Shown here: one piece after another, positions 867 to 44,224 of the stretch
How the letters are laid out: each line of letters opens with the position of its first letter
Position numbering within the stretch: position 1 is the stretch's first letter
Source: Escherichia phage Ec_YwIITB1
Sequence record: PQ356294.1
DNA length: 64,000 bases
Reading direction: 5' to 3' (one strand)
The notes under the pieces: generated by a model
Databases searched by the model: none
Told to the model about the DNA's origin: nothing
The model's input: only the letters and a program-made list of their open reading frames with translations
Translations under genes and position numbers: made by a program

Positions 867-1235
867 TTAATTGCCAATCGTATATTTTGGAACGAGTTTC
901 CATTCGTGTTTTTGTTTAAAAGAAATAACTCGGAAGTTATTAGTTAAATCTTTCATAAAAGTTCTTTGACCAGGAACGATTTCAATCAGTCCCCAATCTT
1001 CTAACAGCCATGCAATCGAATCACGACGAACTTCATCTTCTTCTGTCATTTCAACCTGACGGCCATCCATACGAAGCATTTCTTTAAAATGGACGATATA
1101 GTATAGTCCTTTTTTCTGAAGAATGTGGCAGGACTGATACAGAACTTTATCTTTATTATTAGCAATTCCCATACGAGTCAAGGTTTCTTTTACTTTCAGA
1201 AAATCTTCAGGTTTTTTAAGAGTAATTTCAATCAT
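867..1235 (-). CDS. regA: RegA translational repressor
   Basis: 122 aa ORF; sequence and position between 62 and 43 as in T4. Confidence 0.9.
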   Translation of the reverse strand: MIEITLKKPEDFLKVKETLTRMGIANNKDKVLYQSCHILQKKGLYYIVHFKEMLRMDGRQVEMTEEDEVRRDSIAWLLEDWGLIEIVPGQRTFMKDLTNNFRVISFKQKHEWKLVPKYTIGN

Positions 1236-1236
1236 T

Positions 1237-1800
1237 TTACCATTCCAATGCTAGTTTTTTGAGTTGTTTCTGTTCTTTTACATTCTTAGTCACTTCTTTT
1301 AAAAAATCATCCGTGACTAAACCTTTTAGTTCTTTTAATACTAAAGGAAGTTTTCCATTTTTAGCAAGAATTGATTTATAGTTAATTGCATCATTTGTAT
1401 TAACTTGATACCGCTTAGCAAGTAACTTAATAATCAATACTTCGGTAGAATCTTCGACAAGTTTTGCCCATTTACCGTATCTTTTGCCCCGAGGAACAGC
1501 AGCCATCAGATAATTAAAATGGGCTTCATCGCTTAAACCTGATCCAATTAAATTCATAGCATACACAGCTGGCATGCATTCAGGAAATTGTGATAATGCA
1601 TTCTCAACCATGTATTTTGAATAATCTTTTTGAGCAATAGAGCATTTAGTTTTATTATTAATAGCTCCAATTATTTCAAAAAATTCATTTTCAGCTTTTT
1701 CCTTAAAAGAATCAGCAGCAGATTGGACAGCTGTCCAATCTTTTGAATACCAAGCAACTTGATGCTCGTTTAATTGAATATCATCTTCAAATAAGCTCAT
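1237..1800 (-). CDS. 62: clamp loader small subunit gp62
   Basis: 187 aa, T4 gene order and length. Confidence 0.9.
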
Positions 1801-1801
1801 A

Positions 1802-2761
1802 TCACTTCCACTGCATTTCGCATGCTAATTGAATGAAAAGATATGCTAAATGTAATTCAGTATTAGCCGCAATTCCATGATACTGGTTATTTTCACCAAC
1901 AATTTCATACATACGAATAATACTTTGCGGAGTTACACGTGTATAGATTTCTTCGGCAAGTTTACCTACGAACCACGAATAATCAGCTGCATATTTTGGC
2001 GCTAAAGCTCTGAGCTGTTTAACATCTTTATTTTTGAGAGACTCAAGAACATCATCAATAGCACCACGATCGTTAGTAACCAGTGATAAAATACCAGCAT
2101 CCAAAACACCTTTAGATGAATAACTATCGAGCTCACCAATAGTTTTACGAAAATCCGGAAAATTCTTTTTAACCAAAGCTGCTACAACTTTCATATCAGC
2201 TATAGCAATTCCTTCATGCTTGCAGATTTCAGTCAATCGACGAATCATCTGCTTCATCATTTCAATTTTATCTTCATCAGTCGGTTGACCGAACGTAATA
2301 ACTCGGCAGCGTGACTGAAGCGGTTTAATAATACCATCAATATTGTTAGCAGTAATAATAATACTGCAGTTTGAACTATAAGCTTCCATAAAGGAACGAA
2401 GATGTCGTTGAGACTCTGCTAGCCCTGAACGGTCAAATTCATCAATAACGATTACTTTTTGACGACCATCAAATGAAGCTGCACTAGCAAAATTAGTCAA
2501 AGGACCACGAACGAAATCAATTTTACAGTCTGATCCATTCACAAACATCATATCAGCATTTACATCATGACACAATGCTTTTGCTACAGTTGTTTTACCT
2601 GTTCCTGGAGAAGGAGAATGAAGAATAATATGTGGAATCTTACCTTTACTTGTAATAGATTTAAAGGTTTCTTTATCAAAGGCGGGAAGAATACATTCAT
2701 CGATAGTAGATGGACGATATTTCTGTTCAAGAATGTGTTCTTTTTCATTTACAGTAATCAT
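1802..2761 (-). CDS. 44: clamp loader ATPase gp44
   Basis: Walker A GTGKT; start trimmed to ATG 2759-2761 (MITVNEK, 319 aa) with GAGGA RBS; ORF-track start is upstream. Confidence 0.9.
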
Positions 2762-2792
2762 AATTTCCTCATTCAAGTTTTAGTGTAAATTT

Positions 2793-2808
2793 AAGGGCCG
2801 AAGCCCTT
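2793..2808 (-). other. UUCG-tetraloop hairpin between genes 45 and 44
   Basis: aagggc-cgaa-gccctt inverted repeat in the 45-44 intergenic region. Confidence 0.4.
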
Positions 2809-2810
2809 TA

Positions 2811-3497
2811 TTAAAAGTCGTGGGTAGAATCAGCTTCAAGAGCTACTACATAATTCGCGTGTTCACCTTCAAATTTAGCAGCGCCTTGTTTGCCTTTTGC
2901 CCAAAGCAGAAGTTTATAATTTCCTGGTTGCATTTTCATATTTGCCATATTGATAATGAAATTAAATGTATTTTCACCGTCATAATCACCAAGAGTCAAA
3001 GAATATTTAACACGGGTCAAAGCAGAATCTTCTACTTTATTAAAACCGTTAATTACGATTTTACCTTCTTTTACTGTGATAGCAATTGTATCAATCTGCA
3101 GACCACGAGATACACGCAACAGTTGTTGAAGGTCTTCAGCTTTAATTTCAGTAACAACAGATGCTACCGGGAATGGAATTGGTTTATTAGGAGCCACTAC
3201 TGTGCTCGGATCAGCTGCTGGCCAAAAAATTGTTGAACGAGCATCAGCGATTTTAATATTTCCATCTTCTGACTGGGAAATTTCTGCATCGTCATTAACT
3301 AAGGACAGAATACCGAGAAAACCGTTCAAATCGTAAATTGCTACATCAAAATCAATAGTGTCAGAAATATTTGCTTCCGCATAAGTTGTACCATTAACTG
3401 CGCGAGTCATAATAAATTGACCAGATTTAAGCATAATGCCAGAGTTAATAGTAGCGAAATTTTTAAGCAGAGCAGTAGTATCTTTAGACAGTTTCAT
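2811..3497 (-). CDS. 45: sliding clamp gp45
   Basis: 228 aa ORF, T4 gp45 length and order. Confidence 0.9.
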   Translation of the reverse strand: MKLSKDTTALLKNFATINSGIMLKSGQFIMTRAVNGTTYAEANISDTIDFDVAIYDLNGFLGILSLVNDDAEISQSEDGNIKIADARSTIFWPAADPSTVVAPNKPIPFPVASVVTEIKAEDLQQLLRVSRGLQIDTIAITVKEGKIVINGFNKVEDSALTRVKYSLTLGDYDGENTFNFIINMANMKMQPGNYKLLLWAKGKQGAAKFEGEHANYVVALEADSTHDF

Positions 3498-3552
3498 GTA
3501 ATTTCCTTCAATTCAAGTGAGATTTAATTTTATAACTAATTTAATAAAGCAA

Positions 3553-3942
3553 TTAACGATTAAAATCGGCAGCAATTGTTTCCGCAACAAGTTGAGCAGC
3601 GACAATTAGGCGTTCATCTGCATTACCGCAATAATCGTCTTCAAGGCGCTCACCGCATGAAGTCATAATAAATTTAGCACCAGCATTTAAAGATTCTGTC
3701 GTATGTTTGCGCATTAGTTCAATCCATTTATTGCTTACTTCGCGATCGATAGCTTCATAATACGCATGACGAGCAGGTGCAGATTTAATTTTATTCTGAA
3801 TAACTTCCATTGCGTTATCAGAAAGAGACAAAACCCATGCTCGACGAATTTTATTTTGGTTTTGTGGATTTGAATCAGAACGCACATGTTTTGGCTGAAT
3901 ATCTTTTACATCAACAGTATAATTCACAGTAATTTTAGTCAT
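3553..3942 (-). CDS. rpbA: RNA polymerase binding protein RpbA-like
   Basis: 129 aa ORF between 45 and 46 as in T4. Confidence 0.6.
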
Positions 3943-3951
3943 AATACACCT

Positions 3952-4140
3952 TTAGTCATAATAATCAGTAACAGTCCAAGCTTCATTTCTGTTGGACATT
4001 ATTTTCGTATATTCTGCTTTAAATGCATTCTTAAGCATAGATTCAGTAACTATATGCTCTTCATTAGAAAAATTATTTCTCAGAATATATCGTTTTATTT
4101 CAGGAATAGTTAATAGATGCTGTCCAGTTGAATATTCCAT
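3952..4140 (-). CDS. small hypothetical protein (45.2 position)
   Basis: 62 aa ORF, T4 gene order. Confidence 0.6.
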   Translation of the reverse strand: MEYSTGQHLLTIPEIKRYILRNNFSNEEHIVTESMLKNAFKAEYTKIMSNRNEAWTVTDYYD

Positions 4141-4157
4141 GTTTTTCCTCCATAGAG

Positions 4158-4181
4158 ATTATACTCTAATAAATTAAAGCA
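4158..4181 (-). promoter_or_regulatory. MotA-type middle promoter (TGCTTTA box, 11 nt, TATAAT)
   Basis: Minus strand reads aTGCTTTAatttattagagTATAAT upstream of the 45.2/rpbA/45 block. Confidence 0.5.
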
Positions 4182-4195
4182 TAATCTCTTATAAA

Positions 4196-5878
4196 TTAAA
4201 CCATTACAGTAAATCGACCAACTTTCTTCATTTGAAGATGCTGACCATATTCTTGTGGGTCATGATCTTTATGTGAAATTATAAAAACATTAGTATTTTT
4301 TAAACTATCTAAAATAGTTGAAATAGCTTTTACACCTTCAACATCAGTTGCTGAATCAAAAACTTCATCGAGAATTAGTGTGTTTATTTTAACACCTGAA
4401 ACTTTTTCAGCAATATCACGCCAAGTAAATAAAAGAGCAATATCAATTCGTGCTTTTTCACCTTCACTAAATGAAGCATAACTAAAATCTTCACGACCAC
4501 GGGATTTAATTGTCTCATTAAATTCTTCATCTAATGTAAACACATAATCCGCTTCCATTATTTTAAGATAATGGTTAATCTGCTTATTAAATAATGGAAT
4601 GTACTTTTTAATAATAGCACCTTTAATACCAGAATCTTTGAGCATATCAGTCAAAATTCCTCTGTGGTATTTTTCCATTACCAAATTAGTTTTTGTCTTA
4701 ACAATTTTATCAAGTTCTTCTTGAAGCAGTGCTATTTCATCAGCATGGTCAATAAACTCAGATGATGCTTTTTCTATAGCTGCTTTAACTTTTTTAGCTT
4801 TATCTACAGTCGTGATTAGAGATTGCTTTTTATTGCGAATATCATTTGCCAACGTCTGCTGGGTTTTAATATTATCTCGGTATTCATCAACAAGAACTTT
4901 TAAATTATCACGATGTGTTGAAAGCTGTTCAAACGAATGTGTGCATTCAGAAACTTTATCTTTAATTTTAGAAACAACTTTATCACCGGAACTTAATTGT
5001 GACAAACAGGTTGGACATAATCCACCTTCGTGATACATATTAATGACTTTATTATACGAGTCAATTTTTGATTTAATTAAAAATGCTTCTTGACCGATTT
5101 TATTAAATGCATCAGTCGGGTCTTCATCCAAAACAATATTAACTAATCTTTCATTAGCTTCTTCTATTTCCGATTTTAGCGTTCTGGCTTCTTTTGCCAA
5201 ATCATCATACATATTCTGTAGACGAGTGAGGTTATCACCAGTTAATTTTTTCTGGCGTTCAACGTTATCATTATATATTTTAATTTGCTGGATAATACTA
5301 TCTTTTTTAACATCAAGCACTTGGTTTTGTGAATTTAATTCACGTATTAGTGCTTTATTGAGCTTATCCATTTCAGCTAATGTTCCTACTTCGAGCAGGT
5401 CTTCGACAAGCTTTCTTCTTGCAGGAGTGGATAGGCCCATAAAAGGGGTATATCCAGCCGTGCCGAGTACGACGATCTGTTTGAAACTGGCGTATGACAT
5501 TCCGATAAGCTGTTCAAATTCTGCTTGGAAATCTTTACTGCTGGCAGATTCATTAAGACGTGTACCGTTAACGGTGATTTCGAAAACATTCGGTTTTTGT
5601 CCTCTTTTGATGTAGTACTTTTTTTCATCATATTCCATCCACAGTTCAACTAAAAGTTCTTTCTTATTTGTGCTGTTTATTAATTGACCTTTCTTTACAT
5701 CACGAAATGGCTTGCCAAAAAGCCCAAATGTGATGGCTTCTAACATAGTAGACTTACCACCGCCATTTCGCCCGGTAATAAGAGTTTTTTGAACCTTATC
5801 TAGTTGAATGTCAATAGGATTTCCACCTACTGACATTATATTTTGATACCTAACTCGGTTTAATTTAAAATTCTTCAC
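4196..5878 (-). CDS. 46: recombination endonuclease subunit gp46 (Rad50/SbcC-like ATPase)
   Basis: 560 aa; Walker A GRNGGGKST; central coiled coil. Confidence 0.9.
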   Translation of the reverse strand: MKNFKLNRVRYQNIMSVGGNPIDIQLDKVQKTLITGRNGGGKSTMLEAITFGLFGKPFRDVKKGQLINSTNKKELLVELWMEYDEKKYYIKRGQKPNVFEITVNGTRLNESASSKDFQAEFEQLIGMSYASFKQIVVLGTAGYTPFMGLSTPARRKLVEDLLEVGTLAEMDKLNKALIRELNSQNQVLDVKKDSIIQQIKIYNDNVERQKKLTGDNLTRLQNMYDDLAKEARTLKSEIEEANERLVNIVLDEDPTDAFNKIGQEAFLIKSKIDSYNKVINMYHEGGLCPTCLSQLSSGDKVVSKIKDKVSECTHSFEQLSTHRDNLKVLVDEYRDNIKTQQTLANDIRNKKQSLITTVDKAKKVKAAIEKASSEFIDHADEIALLQEELDKIVKTKTNLVMEKYHRGILTDMLKDSGIKGAIIKKYIPLFNKQINHYLKIMEADYVFTLDEEFNETIKSRGREDFSYASFSEGEKARIDIALLFTWRDIAEKVSGVKINTLILDEVFDSATDVEGVKAISTILDSLKNTNVFIISHKDHDPQEYGQHLQMKKVGRFTVMV

Positions 5879-33843: not shown

Positions 33844-34224
33844 TCAATTAGAAAATAAATTTATCCAAGATTGTTCTTTAATTAAAAATGGCTCAGAATC
33901 ATATGCCATTAAACTTTGGGTGATTAGTCCTTTAAAAGGCCCATCAATAAATTCCATGGTAAAATATGGAATTTTATTCATTAGTCGTGCATTAGGAGCA
34001 GTGCACAAAACTCTGCATCCTTTGAATACGCCTTTTTGTAATTTGTATTGCTTAGGATAAAATTCGCTCAAGACGTTGTTATTTGCCAAAATTTCAAAAT
34101 GATTCACCAATTTATTTTTAATAGTTTTTGGCGAAAAATAAAGATATTCGAAAAGCTGTGTGTCTGTCATCATTGCATTCCGATTACGAAAAACTGCGGA
34201 CGAGTAATACCACCAATGCAACAT
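33844..34224 (-). CDS. hypothetical protein
   Basis: 126 aa ORF; start likely an internal Met. Confidence 0.5.
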   Translation of the reverse strand: MLHWWYYSSAVFRNRNAMMTDTQLFEYLYFSPKTIKNKLVNHFEILANNNVLSEFYPKQYKLQKGVFKGCRVLCTAPNARLMNKIPYFTMEFIDGPFKGLITQSLMAYDSEPFLIKEQSWINLFSN

Positions 34225-34757
34225 TTAATATTACAGCAGTGTTGCACAGTTTCAATATGAATATCGTAAATTTTATCCATATCAGGAGATTTAACAGGCT
34301 CATCGATTATATACAAAATTCGCGAAAGAGATAAACCTCTGAACTTGCTTCCTTTATTACCGATAAAACTACGGACAGAATCAGTAAATAAGCGGAATCG
34401 AATATCATCGCTAGAATAACGAGAAAATTCTTTTTTAATGTGGTCCGCAGAAATTTTAGCGTAAGATGAAGTATTAGAAAGAACAATAACTGTTCCACCG
34501 TCATACAACCAATTAGCAGCAAAGTTAGTCACAGCAATTGATTTACCGGATTGACGTCCACCATCTAGTCGAAGTGTGCAGTATTCTTTAAATAAATGTG
34601 GCGGATCAGGTACATAAAATCTATTACAAATTTCTTCTACTCTAGCATCAGAATGGTGTGTAAAAGCATTCATCAGGGATAGATAAGGACCAGTTAAAAA
34701 TGTTCTCATTTTGTTATCTCTAAATTTGGGCCATTCCATGGCGCATGAATTTTCCAT
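34170..34757 (-). CDS. P-loop NTPase-like protein
   Basis: Walker A GGRQSGKS; Walker B-like LYIIDEP. Confidence 0.55.
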   Translation of the reverse strand: MENSCAMEWPKFRDNKMRTFLTGPYLSLMNAFTHHSDARVEEICNRFYVPDPPHLFKEYCTLRLDGGRQSGKSIAVTNFAANWLYDGGTVIVLSNTSSYAKISADHIKKEFSRYSSDDIRFRLFTDSVRSFIGNKGSKFRGLSLSRILYIIDEPVKSPDMDKIYDIHIETVQHCCNIKCCIGGITRPQFFVIGMQ

Positions 34758-34862
34758 TTCTGTATTTACCCATTACCGCGCTCAGGCTCGACCTTATTAC
34801 AGGTTGGCGGGAATCCCTCATAGAATCATGAGGTCCAGCTTGTTCCCATATTTCTTATTTGC

Positions 34863-35336
34863 TTATTTGAATGATTTGACGTACTGAATAGAGCCTTTGC
34901 TATTCACGAAAGCGATTTTACCATTTTTGTTATACATGGTAGCAGTACGCTGATAACCATAAGTTTGTTTACCAGATTGATAACCAACTAATGCGAAATT
35001 ATCTTCACCCATTTTATTCTGCTTAGCGCGGATACGTTCATGACCGTGTGCCATAAGAACCTTAGCGTCGCCAGTTGCAATGGATCTACGAGTTTTTTCA
35101 TCTTCAACTGTATTAACAAAATCGTCAAATGAATCAAATTTAGCATGAGATTTATTATACAGTTTTCCATCTACTGCATAATTATATCCCTGTACATCCA
35201 TCTCAACTTCTGTACCATCATCCAATACAGCAGTGATTTTTTGACCTTTTTTAAATTTCAAAAGATCAGTAAAAGATTCAGCGATAATTTGAGAATTAAT
35301 AGCTGCTTCAGTGATAAATTCTTGATATGTTTTCAT
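34863..35336 (-). CDS. internal-protein-like capsid-targeted protein
   Basis: N-terminus MKTYQEFITE-AA matches the T4 capsid targeting sequence. Confidence 0.6.
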   Translation of the reverse strand: MKTYQEFITEAAINSQIIAESFTDLLKFKKGQKITAVLDDGTEVEMDVQGYNYAVDGKLYNKSHAKFDSFDDFVNTVEDEKTRRSIATGDAKVLMAHGHERIRAKQNKMGEDNFALVGYQSGKQTYGYQRTATMYNKNGKIAFVNSKGSIQYVKSFK

Positions 35337-35345
35337 GTGTTTCCT

Positions 35346-35762
35346 TTAAATGTAAATAGTTTTACCGTAGTATTTATACCAGTATGGCTTCATTAAAATT
35401 TTTTCATAGAGTCGTTGTTGACTCAATTTAATAGCTGATTTGCATGGATTATAATCATTTTTCCATTCTGCTGGAATATCGCTGATGTCAGGAACTTCAG
35501 TATCTTTTATACTAAACCCACGTTTTAAGCATTCCATTATAATGTCTGATTGACGCTTTCGCAAAAATTCTAACTTATCGTAAAAGAACGTGACATGACC
35601 AGAACCTAAAATAAACTCGGAAGATATTTTAAAATCTTTAACCCGTTTACCATTTGCCACGTGTTTACGAACTATACCAAAAACACGTGGCAATTCACGG
35701 TATTCCGCAATTAAATGTTGGTCAGCAAGTTCAGATACTAAAGTCAAATTAATACGAGTCAT
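35346..35762 (-). CDS. denV: endonuclease V (pyrimidine dimer glycosylase)
   Basis: 138 aa, T4 DenV. Confidence 0.9.
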
Positions 35763-35821: not shown

Positions 35822-36352
<531 letters not shown>

Positions 36353-36808
36353 TTAAAAGAGGCTGTTCATTATTCGGTAAAGTGAAGGGCCCATCACATA
36401 TTGCCACTGAGTACGAGGAATAAGAGCAAAAGCATCCATCTCTGGAATCATAACGCCATCTTTATTTTCAAAATAAGACTCACAACAGCAATTTCTAAAC
36501 ATCTCATGCTCTACTGGAATCGTATAGTAAAATAACTGTAAGTCTTTATTACTAGAATATTTAAATACACCTAAGTCTTCTAGAAGGTCTGGATTATAAT
36601 TGCTAAAGCCAGTCTCTTCTAAGCATTCTCTTCGTGCTGCATCTAGCGCGCTTAAATCAGAATTTTCTACACGCCCCTTTGGAATATCCCAGCGATGTGC
36701 CATCATTCCATGCTTACGAGAACCAGTAACTCGTCCCATAAATAAATCTTTATCTTCTGTCATAAAGATAATACCAGCTGATAGTGTTTTCATTTTAATT
36801 TCCTGCAT
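36353..36808 (-). CDS. nudE: Nudix hydrolase
   Basis: Nudix box GRVENSDLSALDAARRECLEETG; start may be the second ATG at 36791-36793, which overlaps the upstream stop. Confidence 0.8.
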   Translation of the reverse strand: MQEIKMKTLSAGIIFMTEDKDLFMGRVTGSRKHGMMAHRWDIPKGRVENSDLSALDAARRECLEETGFSNYNPDLLEDLGVFKYSSNKDLQLFYYTIPVEHEMFRNCCCESYFENKDGVMIPEMDAFALIPRTQWQYVMGPSLYRIMNSLF

Positions 36809-40359: not shown

Positions 40360-40923
40360 TTATTTATCTAGTTTAGTTATTATAGCTTCTGCAGCAGCTT
40401 TTAGCTTAGATGCGGTGTTAATACGATTTTTAATTTCAGTATACGCGTCGCCAAGAACATCAAGGCTATCAGAATAAACACTTACACTATTGCGTTCGCT
40501 ATTTGAAATAGAACCTTTAGTTTTGCGGTCAAAATCGGTGTACACGTCTTGAAGATCGCGGGCTGCCTTCTTTGCATCATCCAATGCATCAAGAGCTTTA
40601 TTCAAAGCATTAACGTATTTTTTAGTGTCGAACATATTCTTAGAAATTTTAACAGGTGCGCGTTCAGGAGTAGCTAACACAGATTTAGGAACCTGAGCAC
40701 CAGATGCCAATTTCTTGGAAATTTTGAAAAATGCTTTATTGAATTTATTTTCTTGACTCATTGTAAAAGAACTATTATCGATGTTGTACATTTCAATAGC
40801 TTTAGCTTTCCACTTAAGAAAATCGCCGCGGTCTTTTGGGTCCAAGTGGAAGAATACTTTAGTAAGATCTGCTTCAGATGGTAATTTTGCTGCTTCGGTT
40901 AAAAATTCGGCATAGGTTTTCAT
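40360..40923 (-). CDS. internal-protein-like capsid-targeted protein
   Basis: N-terminus MKTYAEFLTE-AA; 187 aa. Confidence 0.6.
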   Translation of the reverse strand: MKTYAEFLTEAAKLPSEADLTKVFFHLDPKDRGDFLKWKAKAIEMYNIDNSSFTMSQENKFNKAFFKISKKLASGAQVPKSVLATPERAPVKISKNMFDTKKYVNALNKALDALDDAKKAARDLQDVYTDFDRKTKGSISNSERNSVSVYSDSLDVLGDAYTEIKNRINTASKLKAAAEAIITKLDK

Positions 40924-43966: not shown

Positions 43967-44224
43967 TTATTTTAAATCTTCTAATCGTTTCTTCATCTTA
44001 GAACCATTTTTAGCAATTTCTCCTGCATCGGAGCATAACGCTAAAAGTGCTTTAACTTTAGTTTGGTCTCCTTTAAAAGATGAAGGATTGACCGCAGCAG
44101 CAAGTTCTTTAATACGAGAGAAAAGACGCTCAGCTTCAGCTAAAGCCATTCCAAGCTTTACTTCCATACCGTGGGAAGATTCAGTGATAGTAGTTTTTGT
44201 AGCAAACTCTTTGAAAGTTTTCAT
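43967..44224 (-). CDS. internal protein I-like small protein
   Basis: 85 aa; N-terminus MKTFKEFATK resembles the capsid targeting sequence; sits upstream of 57B as ipI does in T4. Confidence 0.5.
   Translation of the reverse strand: MKTFKEFATKTTITESSHGMEVKLGMALAEAERLFSRIKELAAAVNPSSFKGDQTKVKALLALCSDAGEIAKNGSKMKKRLEDLK

Follow-up and report, generated by a model that had tools for sequence, protein, structure and literature searches.

The internal head proteins of phage T4 provide the background to the gene analysed here. Each of Ip1, Ip2 and Ip3 blocks its own restriction enzyme of the GmrSD type (Silas et al. 2025, PMC12373910), the targets of Ip2 and Ip3 being the GmrSD variants of ECOR21 and ECOR17. 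No homology links the three proteins, and ip2 and ip3 are missing from T2 and T6 (PMC12373910). The T-even internal proteins have been described as a diverse defence set with only the targeting sequence in common; the DNA of T4 holds about 1000 embedded internal protein molecules, whose lysines contact DNA phosphates (Rao and Black, PMC3012670). Relatives of T4 encode many more internal proteins than T4's three, at least 10 having been reported (PMC12373910, citing Repoila et al. 1994). Two of the T4 genes, ipII and ipIII, lie in the interval between e and vs.8, which is a known polymorphic internal-protein locus, and their products are annotated as precursors from which residues −10 to −1 are removed (record X04567).

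We analysed this locus in a 64,000-nucleotide stretch of Escherichia phage Ec_YwIITB1 (PQ356294.1), referred to below as the window. The phage belongs to Tequatrovirus, and the window is ∼96–97% identical to Shigella phages sb2 and pSs-1 across 24 kb. The gene of interest and its neighbours are:

34863..35336, minus strand: ip4 (ipIV) coding sequence, an ATG-to-stop ORF for a 157 aa precursor, 100% identical to T2 ipIV and RB32 Ip4
35346..35762, minus strand: denV (endonuclease V), immediately 5′ of ip4; Pfam Pyr_excise, E = 4.2e-13, and Sf21 ortholog annotated DenV
35822..36316, minus strand: e (lysozyme), bounding the polymorphic internal-protein locus upstream; Pfam Phage_lysozyme and annotation
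34170..34757, minus strand: vs.8 homolog, the downstream edge of the locus; Sf21 ortholog annotated "similar to T4 Vs.8"
36353..36808, minus strand: nudE, a same-strand neighbour

The ORF at 34863..35336 is the long-named internal head protein Ip4 (IpIV) of T2-like phages. An earlier note on this DNA had described the ORF exactly, with its length of 157 aa and its start MKTYQEFITE-AA, as the ORF list confirms. The translation starts MKTYQEFITEAA and includes MKTYQEFITEAAINSQIIAESF...LMAHGHERIRAK...VKSFK. It matches Pfam DUF7412 over its full length (E = 5.7e-96; 319.4 bits against a curated cut-off of 27 bits; residues 1–157 on profile positions 1–158) and likewise PHROG 3155, "internal virion protein" (E = 6e-102). 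All 157 residues are identical to those of T2 IpIV and RB32 Ip4, and the 100% matches also include "ipIV" of Yersinia phage PST and many more. The RefSeq record of Sf21 labels the ortholog "similar to phage T2 Ip4", and the top match among predicted viral structures is UniProt Q38388, "Ip4, Enterobacteria phage K3" (BFVD model, TM 0.94). It is on these profile matches, identities, label and structural match that the identification is based. By tblastn, 470 of 50,697 phage records carry a relative of the window protein, 290 of them at ≥99% identity.

Comparison of the gene with that of seven other phages gave 1.5–4.9% nucleotide difference, comprising 7–22 synonymous and 0–1 non-synonymous codon changes (21 and 0 against T2). 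This synonymous excess indicates strong purifying selection and, together with the full-length Pfam match, places the ORF beyond chance. The feature is thus real and already known, since the name Ip4 is long-standing (Q38388) and RefSeq genomes carry the protein under the label of an internal virion protein; it counts for little as a discovery. Known carriers include T2, K3, RB32, RB51 and RB68, in which the protein is the same as in the window and so are the flanking genes. Relative to T2, the window has denV inserted between e and ip4, and relative to certain other carriers it has a copy of TATAAATA, the T4 late-promoter consensus, inside the end of denV.

Because nudE, e, denV, ip4 and vs.8 are all on the minus strand, ip4 is downstream of denV rather than upstream of it. 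The transcription order in the window is e > denV > ip4 > vs.8, and the sequence reads directly from the denV stop codon to the start of ip4 9 nt beyond it. The description of ip4 as "upstream of denV" in the earlier note is therefore wrong by transcription, ip4 preceding denV only in plus-strand coordinates. The same note was right that denV and e are adjacent with no ip gene between them, as the ORF positions and the Pfam matches to Pyr_excise and Phage_lysozyme establish. Across the phages compared, the e–vs.8 interval takes the following forms, written in plus-strand order:

vs.8, denV, ipII, ipIII, e: T4, JE01
vs.8, ipIV, e (without denV): T2
vs.8, ip4, denV, e: the window, Sf21, JY01, HY01, GiZh, RB68
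vs.8, ip4, an extra leader-bearing gene (105 aa), denV, e: PhiZZ23
vs.8, denV, ipII, e: UGKSEcP1
vs.8, denV, e (without an ip gene): U115, YUEEL01, fFiEco06 (Tequatrovirus)

In T2, and likewise in Jiaodavirus and Gelderlandvirus, e is immediately followed by Ip4; another leader-bearing gene comes next in KP182 (Jiaodavirus) and STML-198 (Gelderlandvirus), and ip genes are thus stacked within the interval in these two phages as well as in PhiZZ23. Ip4 is the commonest occupant of the locus among the phages sampled. A 311-nt query spanning the denV–ip4 junction is covered at ≥80% by 164 records, and the T4 block denV-ipII-ipIII-e at ≥80% by 33, which makes the window's arrangement about five times commoner than that of T4, and T4 the unusual one. 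The position had been called non-canonical, which is true against T4, where ipII and ipIII lie between denV and e and not between denV and vs.8, but does not hold otherwise: the gene occupies the same e–vs.8 interval, in the more frequent arrangement, and Ip4 follows e in T2 and two further genera. Synteny comparison accordingly separates the window from T4 without making its arrangement odd. The apparent oddity arose because T4 was used as the reference and the plus strand was read.

Variation of ip4 within Tequatrovirus takes the form of gene presence or absence. Being variably present and having no known non-injected function, ip4 differs from the ortholog, common to all T-evens at this position, that would have spoken against the earlier note. 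Repoila et al. 1994 is said to be the original description of ip polymorphism. The inference of a shuffled locus with a diversified payload, drawn in the earlier note, is correct yet old (PMC12373910, citing Repoila et al. 1994).

The edges of the ip4 insertion can be recognised. The downstream edge is marked by the following element:

34797..34848, minus strand: conserved segment GGGAACAAGCTGGACCTCATGATTCTATGAGGGATTCCCGCCAACCTGTAATAAGG (GGGAAnAAnCTGGACCTCATGATT...), where the ip4 insertion has its 3′ edge

The GGGAAnAAnCTGGACCTCATGATT segment follows the ip4 stop codon in the window and the ipIV stop codon in T2, and in T4, as in five phages with denV and no ip4, it comes straight after the stop codon of denV. 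At the upstream edge, ...TTTAAAGGAAACAnATG precedes every ip4 compared. The leader and ribosome-binding sequence common to the ip genes look like recombination joints between ip cassettes, judging from these alignments. A pattern scan of IMG/VR DNA for the denV 3′ end returned no matches.

Several annotations around the locus deserve comment. The annotated length of vs.8 ranges widely among records, between 333 nt (T2) and 660 nt (T4), and the T4 annotation puts the vs.8 start within the conserved segment that follows denV. When window positions 34758..34862 are read together with vs.8 (34170..34757, minus strand), the longest vs.8 ORF starts later and, by eye, is in another frame. In T2 (NC_054931; locus L002, 1942..2913), nudE is annotated as a 972-nt CDS ending at the same base as e (2419..2913); it thus spans all of the lysozyme gene, probably as an artefact of annotation or because of a fusion in this record. 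In Klebsiella phage KP182 (locus L005, ∼3480..3570), a promoter-like TTTACA...TATAGT and a stem-loop lie between Ip4 and an IpIII-like gene, followed by ATGACACGTATTAACTTAA, which corresponds to the first denV codons (MTRINL) and then a stop. This stretch looks like the remnant of a deleted denV. A similar promoter and stem-loop are found 3′ of Ip4 in STML-198.

Three signals bear on the expression of ip4:

35342..35345, minus strand: Shine-Dalgarno AGGA, abutting the denV stop codon and 5 nt ahead of the ip4 ATG, read from the sequence
36330..36350, minus strand: two TATAAATA motifs just upstream of e, with the same pair before e in T4, T2 and Sf21
35371..35378, minus strand: TATAAATA, the late-promoter consensus of T4, within denV codons W-Y-K-Y and 34 nt ahead of the ip4 ATG

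In seven other phages, too, ip4 has the AAAGGAAACA ribosome-binding leader in front of it. From their sequence and placement, the two TATAAATA motifs before e are likely to be late promoters whose transcripts continue past e and denV into ip4; a search for terminator-like sites found none on this strand from e as far as ip4. We consider ip4 to be read on the minus strand, most likely in late transcripts from the motifs before e, with the motif inside denV offering an additional possible start in the window phage. This internal motif was also considered as a late promoter co-selected with ip4. In a first sample it was present in 2 of 2 ip4 carriers and absent, through synonymous differences, from 6 of 6 phages that have denV and lack ip4. 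While the window, Sf21 and JY01 have it, four further carriers (HY01, GiZh, RB68 and PhiZZ23) do not, and co-selection is rejected as a general rule: with the motif missing in 4 of 7 sampled carriers, it is optional at best. TATAAATA is not enriched in the window (13 found, 10.3 expected). A hairpin after the ip4 stop codon was rejected as a terminator or stable structure, since the predicted RNA folding of the conserved segment there is no better than that of shuffled sequence (z = −0.04).

The N terminus of the precursor carries two segments relevant to packaging:

35307..35336, minus strand: capsid targeting sequence MKTYQEFITE, codons 1–10, with an I-x-E end, recognised by likeness to T4 IpII and IpIII
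35277..35306, minus strand: candidate second propeptide segment AAINSQIIAE, codons 11–20, ending in a second I-x-E↓S (arrow, cleavage position), proposed from the conservation of E20

The leader is identical at 9 of 10 positions to MKTYQEFIAE of both T4 IpII and T4 IpIII, and the prohead-protease motif, (L or I)-x-E followed by a small residue, is present as I-T-E↓A at residues 8–11. In an alignment of 12 Tevenvirinae family members from several genera, with 61–82% identity, M1, K2, F7 and E10 are invariant in all 12; Tequatrovirus, Jiaodavirus, Gelderlandvirus and a Serratia phage all share the conserved leader. E20 is also invariant in 12 of 12, with I, L or M two residues before it and S or A after it, and a second cut after Glu20 (I-A-E↓S, residues 18–21) is possible on this pattern. 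Ip4 thus shares with T4 IpII and IpIII a 10-residue leader, an I-x-E↓A motif, the e–vs.8 locus and a small, basic, lysine-rich product, whereas the mature parts are unrelated. Other Ip families in PHROG match Ip4 weakly and at the N terminus only (residues 1–14 up to 1–65), and no fold similarity to Ip1, Ip2 or Ip3 was found, sequence likeness to them being limited to the leader.

These features support the earlier reading of the ORF as a capsid-targeted internal protein, and from leader homology and locus we regard packaging, processing and injection of Ip4 as highly probable. The leader could instead be a relic of recombination between ip genes, on a product that stays in the cytoplasm and is not packaged. 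The resemblance of the conserved leader and ribosome-binding region to cassette joints would allow the leader to ride passively in this way. However, selection has preserved the leader and its Glu10 in genera whose proteins otherwise differ by 30–40%, and a distant phage has its own leader type in place (see below), which together make a cytoplasmic product very improbable.

A six-frame scan of the window identified two more ORFs with similar leaders, at 40360..40923 and 43967..44224. The first (minus strand; 187 aa, MKTYAEFLTEAAK) has a near-perfect leader, MKTYAEFLTE↓AAK, and a mature pI of 9.46; it belongs to PHROG 2280, labelled "unknown function", and by these sequence characters is probably an internal protein overlooked by that label. 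The second (minus strand; 85 aa, MKTFKEFATKTT) belongs to PHROG 3499, "internal head protein", and has an atypical leader, MKTFKEFATK, with no Glu at position 10 and its first I-x-E↓S at residues 13–16. As the three proteins fall into three different PHROG families (3155, 2280 and 3499) with only the N terminus in common, the statements that Ip4 is a third leader-bearing protein and is unrelated to the other two both hold. In Citrobacter phage PhiZZ23 (locus L016, 1364..1681, minus strand), the extra 105-aa gene between denV and ip4 has the leader MKTYQEFIAE↓S and is preceded by the same AAAGGAAACA as ip4; its annotation says no more than hypothetical protein.

Mature Ip4 would have 147 or 137 aa after one cut or two, with a pI of 9.14 or 9.28 and 17 lysines (IpII and IpIII have pI values of 9.56 and 9.65). 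Its structure is modelled with moderate confidence (pLDDT 75.7). No structural relative was found in the PDB, where the sole match of a sequence search was a repeat protein and was discarded as spurious. An exhaustive profile search of 1.84 billion representative proteins found only 7, with no bacterial homologs and no link to another family. Within Tequatrovirus the protein is nearly invariant, unlike the rapid diversification often seen in arms-race proteins.

This near-invariance would suit a structural role, and the main rival to a specific inhibitor is a generic DNA-associated head protein that neutralises charge or assists DNA packing or ejection and has no specific host target. The basic character of mature Ip4 (pI 9.1–9.3, 17 lysines) fits such a role, as does the contact of T4 internal protein lysines with DNA phosphates (PMC3012670). 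Against it, the gene is dispensable at the lineage level, U115, YUEEL01 and fFiEco06 having no ip gene in the locus, and all three T4 internal proteins tested are specific restriction inhibitors (PMC12373910). Moreover, the motifs NKS, YQSGK and GYxRT are kept at 35% identity, suggesting that a specific folded surface matters and not bulk charge. We consider a purely generic role unlikely.

The motifs just mentioned come from distant relatives. Three of the seven proteins from the profile search (P0015–P0017) are such relatives, with 34–37% identity, and they keep NKS, NK, Q-x-G and GY-x-x-T. They also bear on the HGHER string that the earlier note had correctly reported in the body of the protein and that lies at residues 97–101. 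Among the 12 Tevenvirinae members G98, H99, R101 and I102 are invariant, and H97 varies (Y, F). T4 does package enzymes, for example Alt, and the invariant residues would be consistent with an injected enzyme in which the HGHER histidines are catalytic or bind metal. In P0015–P0017, however, H97, H99 and R101 are all replaced or deleted. HGHER is thus not a conserved motif of the family, and for the same reason we reject it as a catalytic motif. Given this loss and the variation at H97, an enzymatic Ip4 is largely refuted and scarcely credible.

P0015 (37% identity) maps to a 381 kb viral contig of IMG/VR, IMGVR_UViG_3300011242_000001 (locus L004), and itself starts MNFEQFLNE↓S. Three unrelated ORFs beside it start MKFADFLNE, MNFEQFLNE and MSFTNFLNE, so that positions 1005..4474 of the locus hold a cluster of four ORFs, the Ip4 relative included, with M-x-F-x-x-F-L-N-E starts. 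Two TATAAATA motifs lie directly upstream of P0015. These sequence features suggest that an uncultured jumbo phage has an internal-protein system of the T4 kind, equipped with a leader of its own. The presence of the payload domain under a different, locally shared leader fits a packaging tag matched to the resident prohead. No close copy was found in the cultured phages of the collection, and a pattern scan of IMG/VR DNA for P0016 gave no matches.

Taken together, the data make it very probable that Ip4 is one of the interchangeable T-even internal head proteins. In the mechanism we propose, MKTYQEFITE would act as a capsid targeting sequence that recruits the Ip4 precursor to the prohead scaffolding core. 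The prohead protease (gp21 in T4) would then cut the leader after Glu10 (I-T-E↓A) and may also cut after Glu20 (I-A-E↓S). The product, a basic, lysine-rich protein of ∼15.5–16.5 kDa, would stay with the packaged DNA and enter the cell with it, where it would most probably neutralise one specific host defence. T4 IPI* (Ip1), the GmrS/GmrD inhibitor, is packaged, trimmed, injected and acts by binding, and the same mode is presumed for Ip4 by analogy.

No paper with functional data on Ip4/ipIV was found in the searchable literature. Since Ip1–Ip3 inhibit GmrSD enzymes and the internal proteins have been described as diverse defence proteins, an anti-defence role is the most likely function; resting on analogy, it has in our view an even or slightly better chance of being correct. 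The lack of homology between Ip4 and Ip1, Ip2 or Ip3 does not bear on function, because those three are themselves mutually non-homologous. The same analogy would make the target a modification-dependent restriction enzyme (type IV, GmrSD family), inhibited by binding and not by catalysis, a more specific suggestion that we make only tentatively. We hold with similar reserve a broader proposal: that Ip4 is an injected inhibitor with an orphan fold, directed at a defence beyond those met by Ip1, Ip2 and Ip3 and cut after Glu10 and then Glu20, whose payload domain may have moved between distant lineages under a local leader each time, as with MNFEQFLNE on the 381 kb contig. A candidate for the defence in that case is a further GmrSD subtype restricting glucosyl-hmC DNA.

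Each of the three T4 internal proteins specifically inhibits a type IV restriction enzyme, and Ip4, for which no target is known, is therefore an obvious candidate for the same screen. With relatives in 470 records from several genera, it is relevant to the host range of therapeutic T-even phages.
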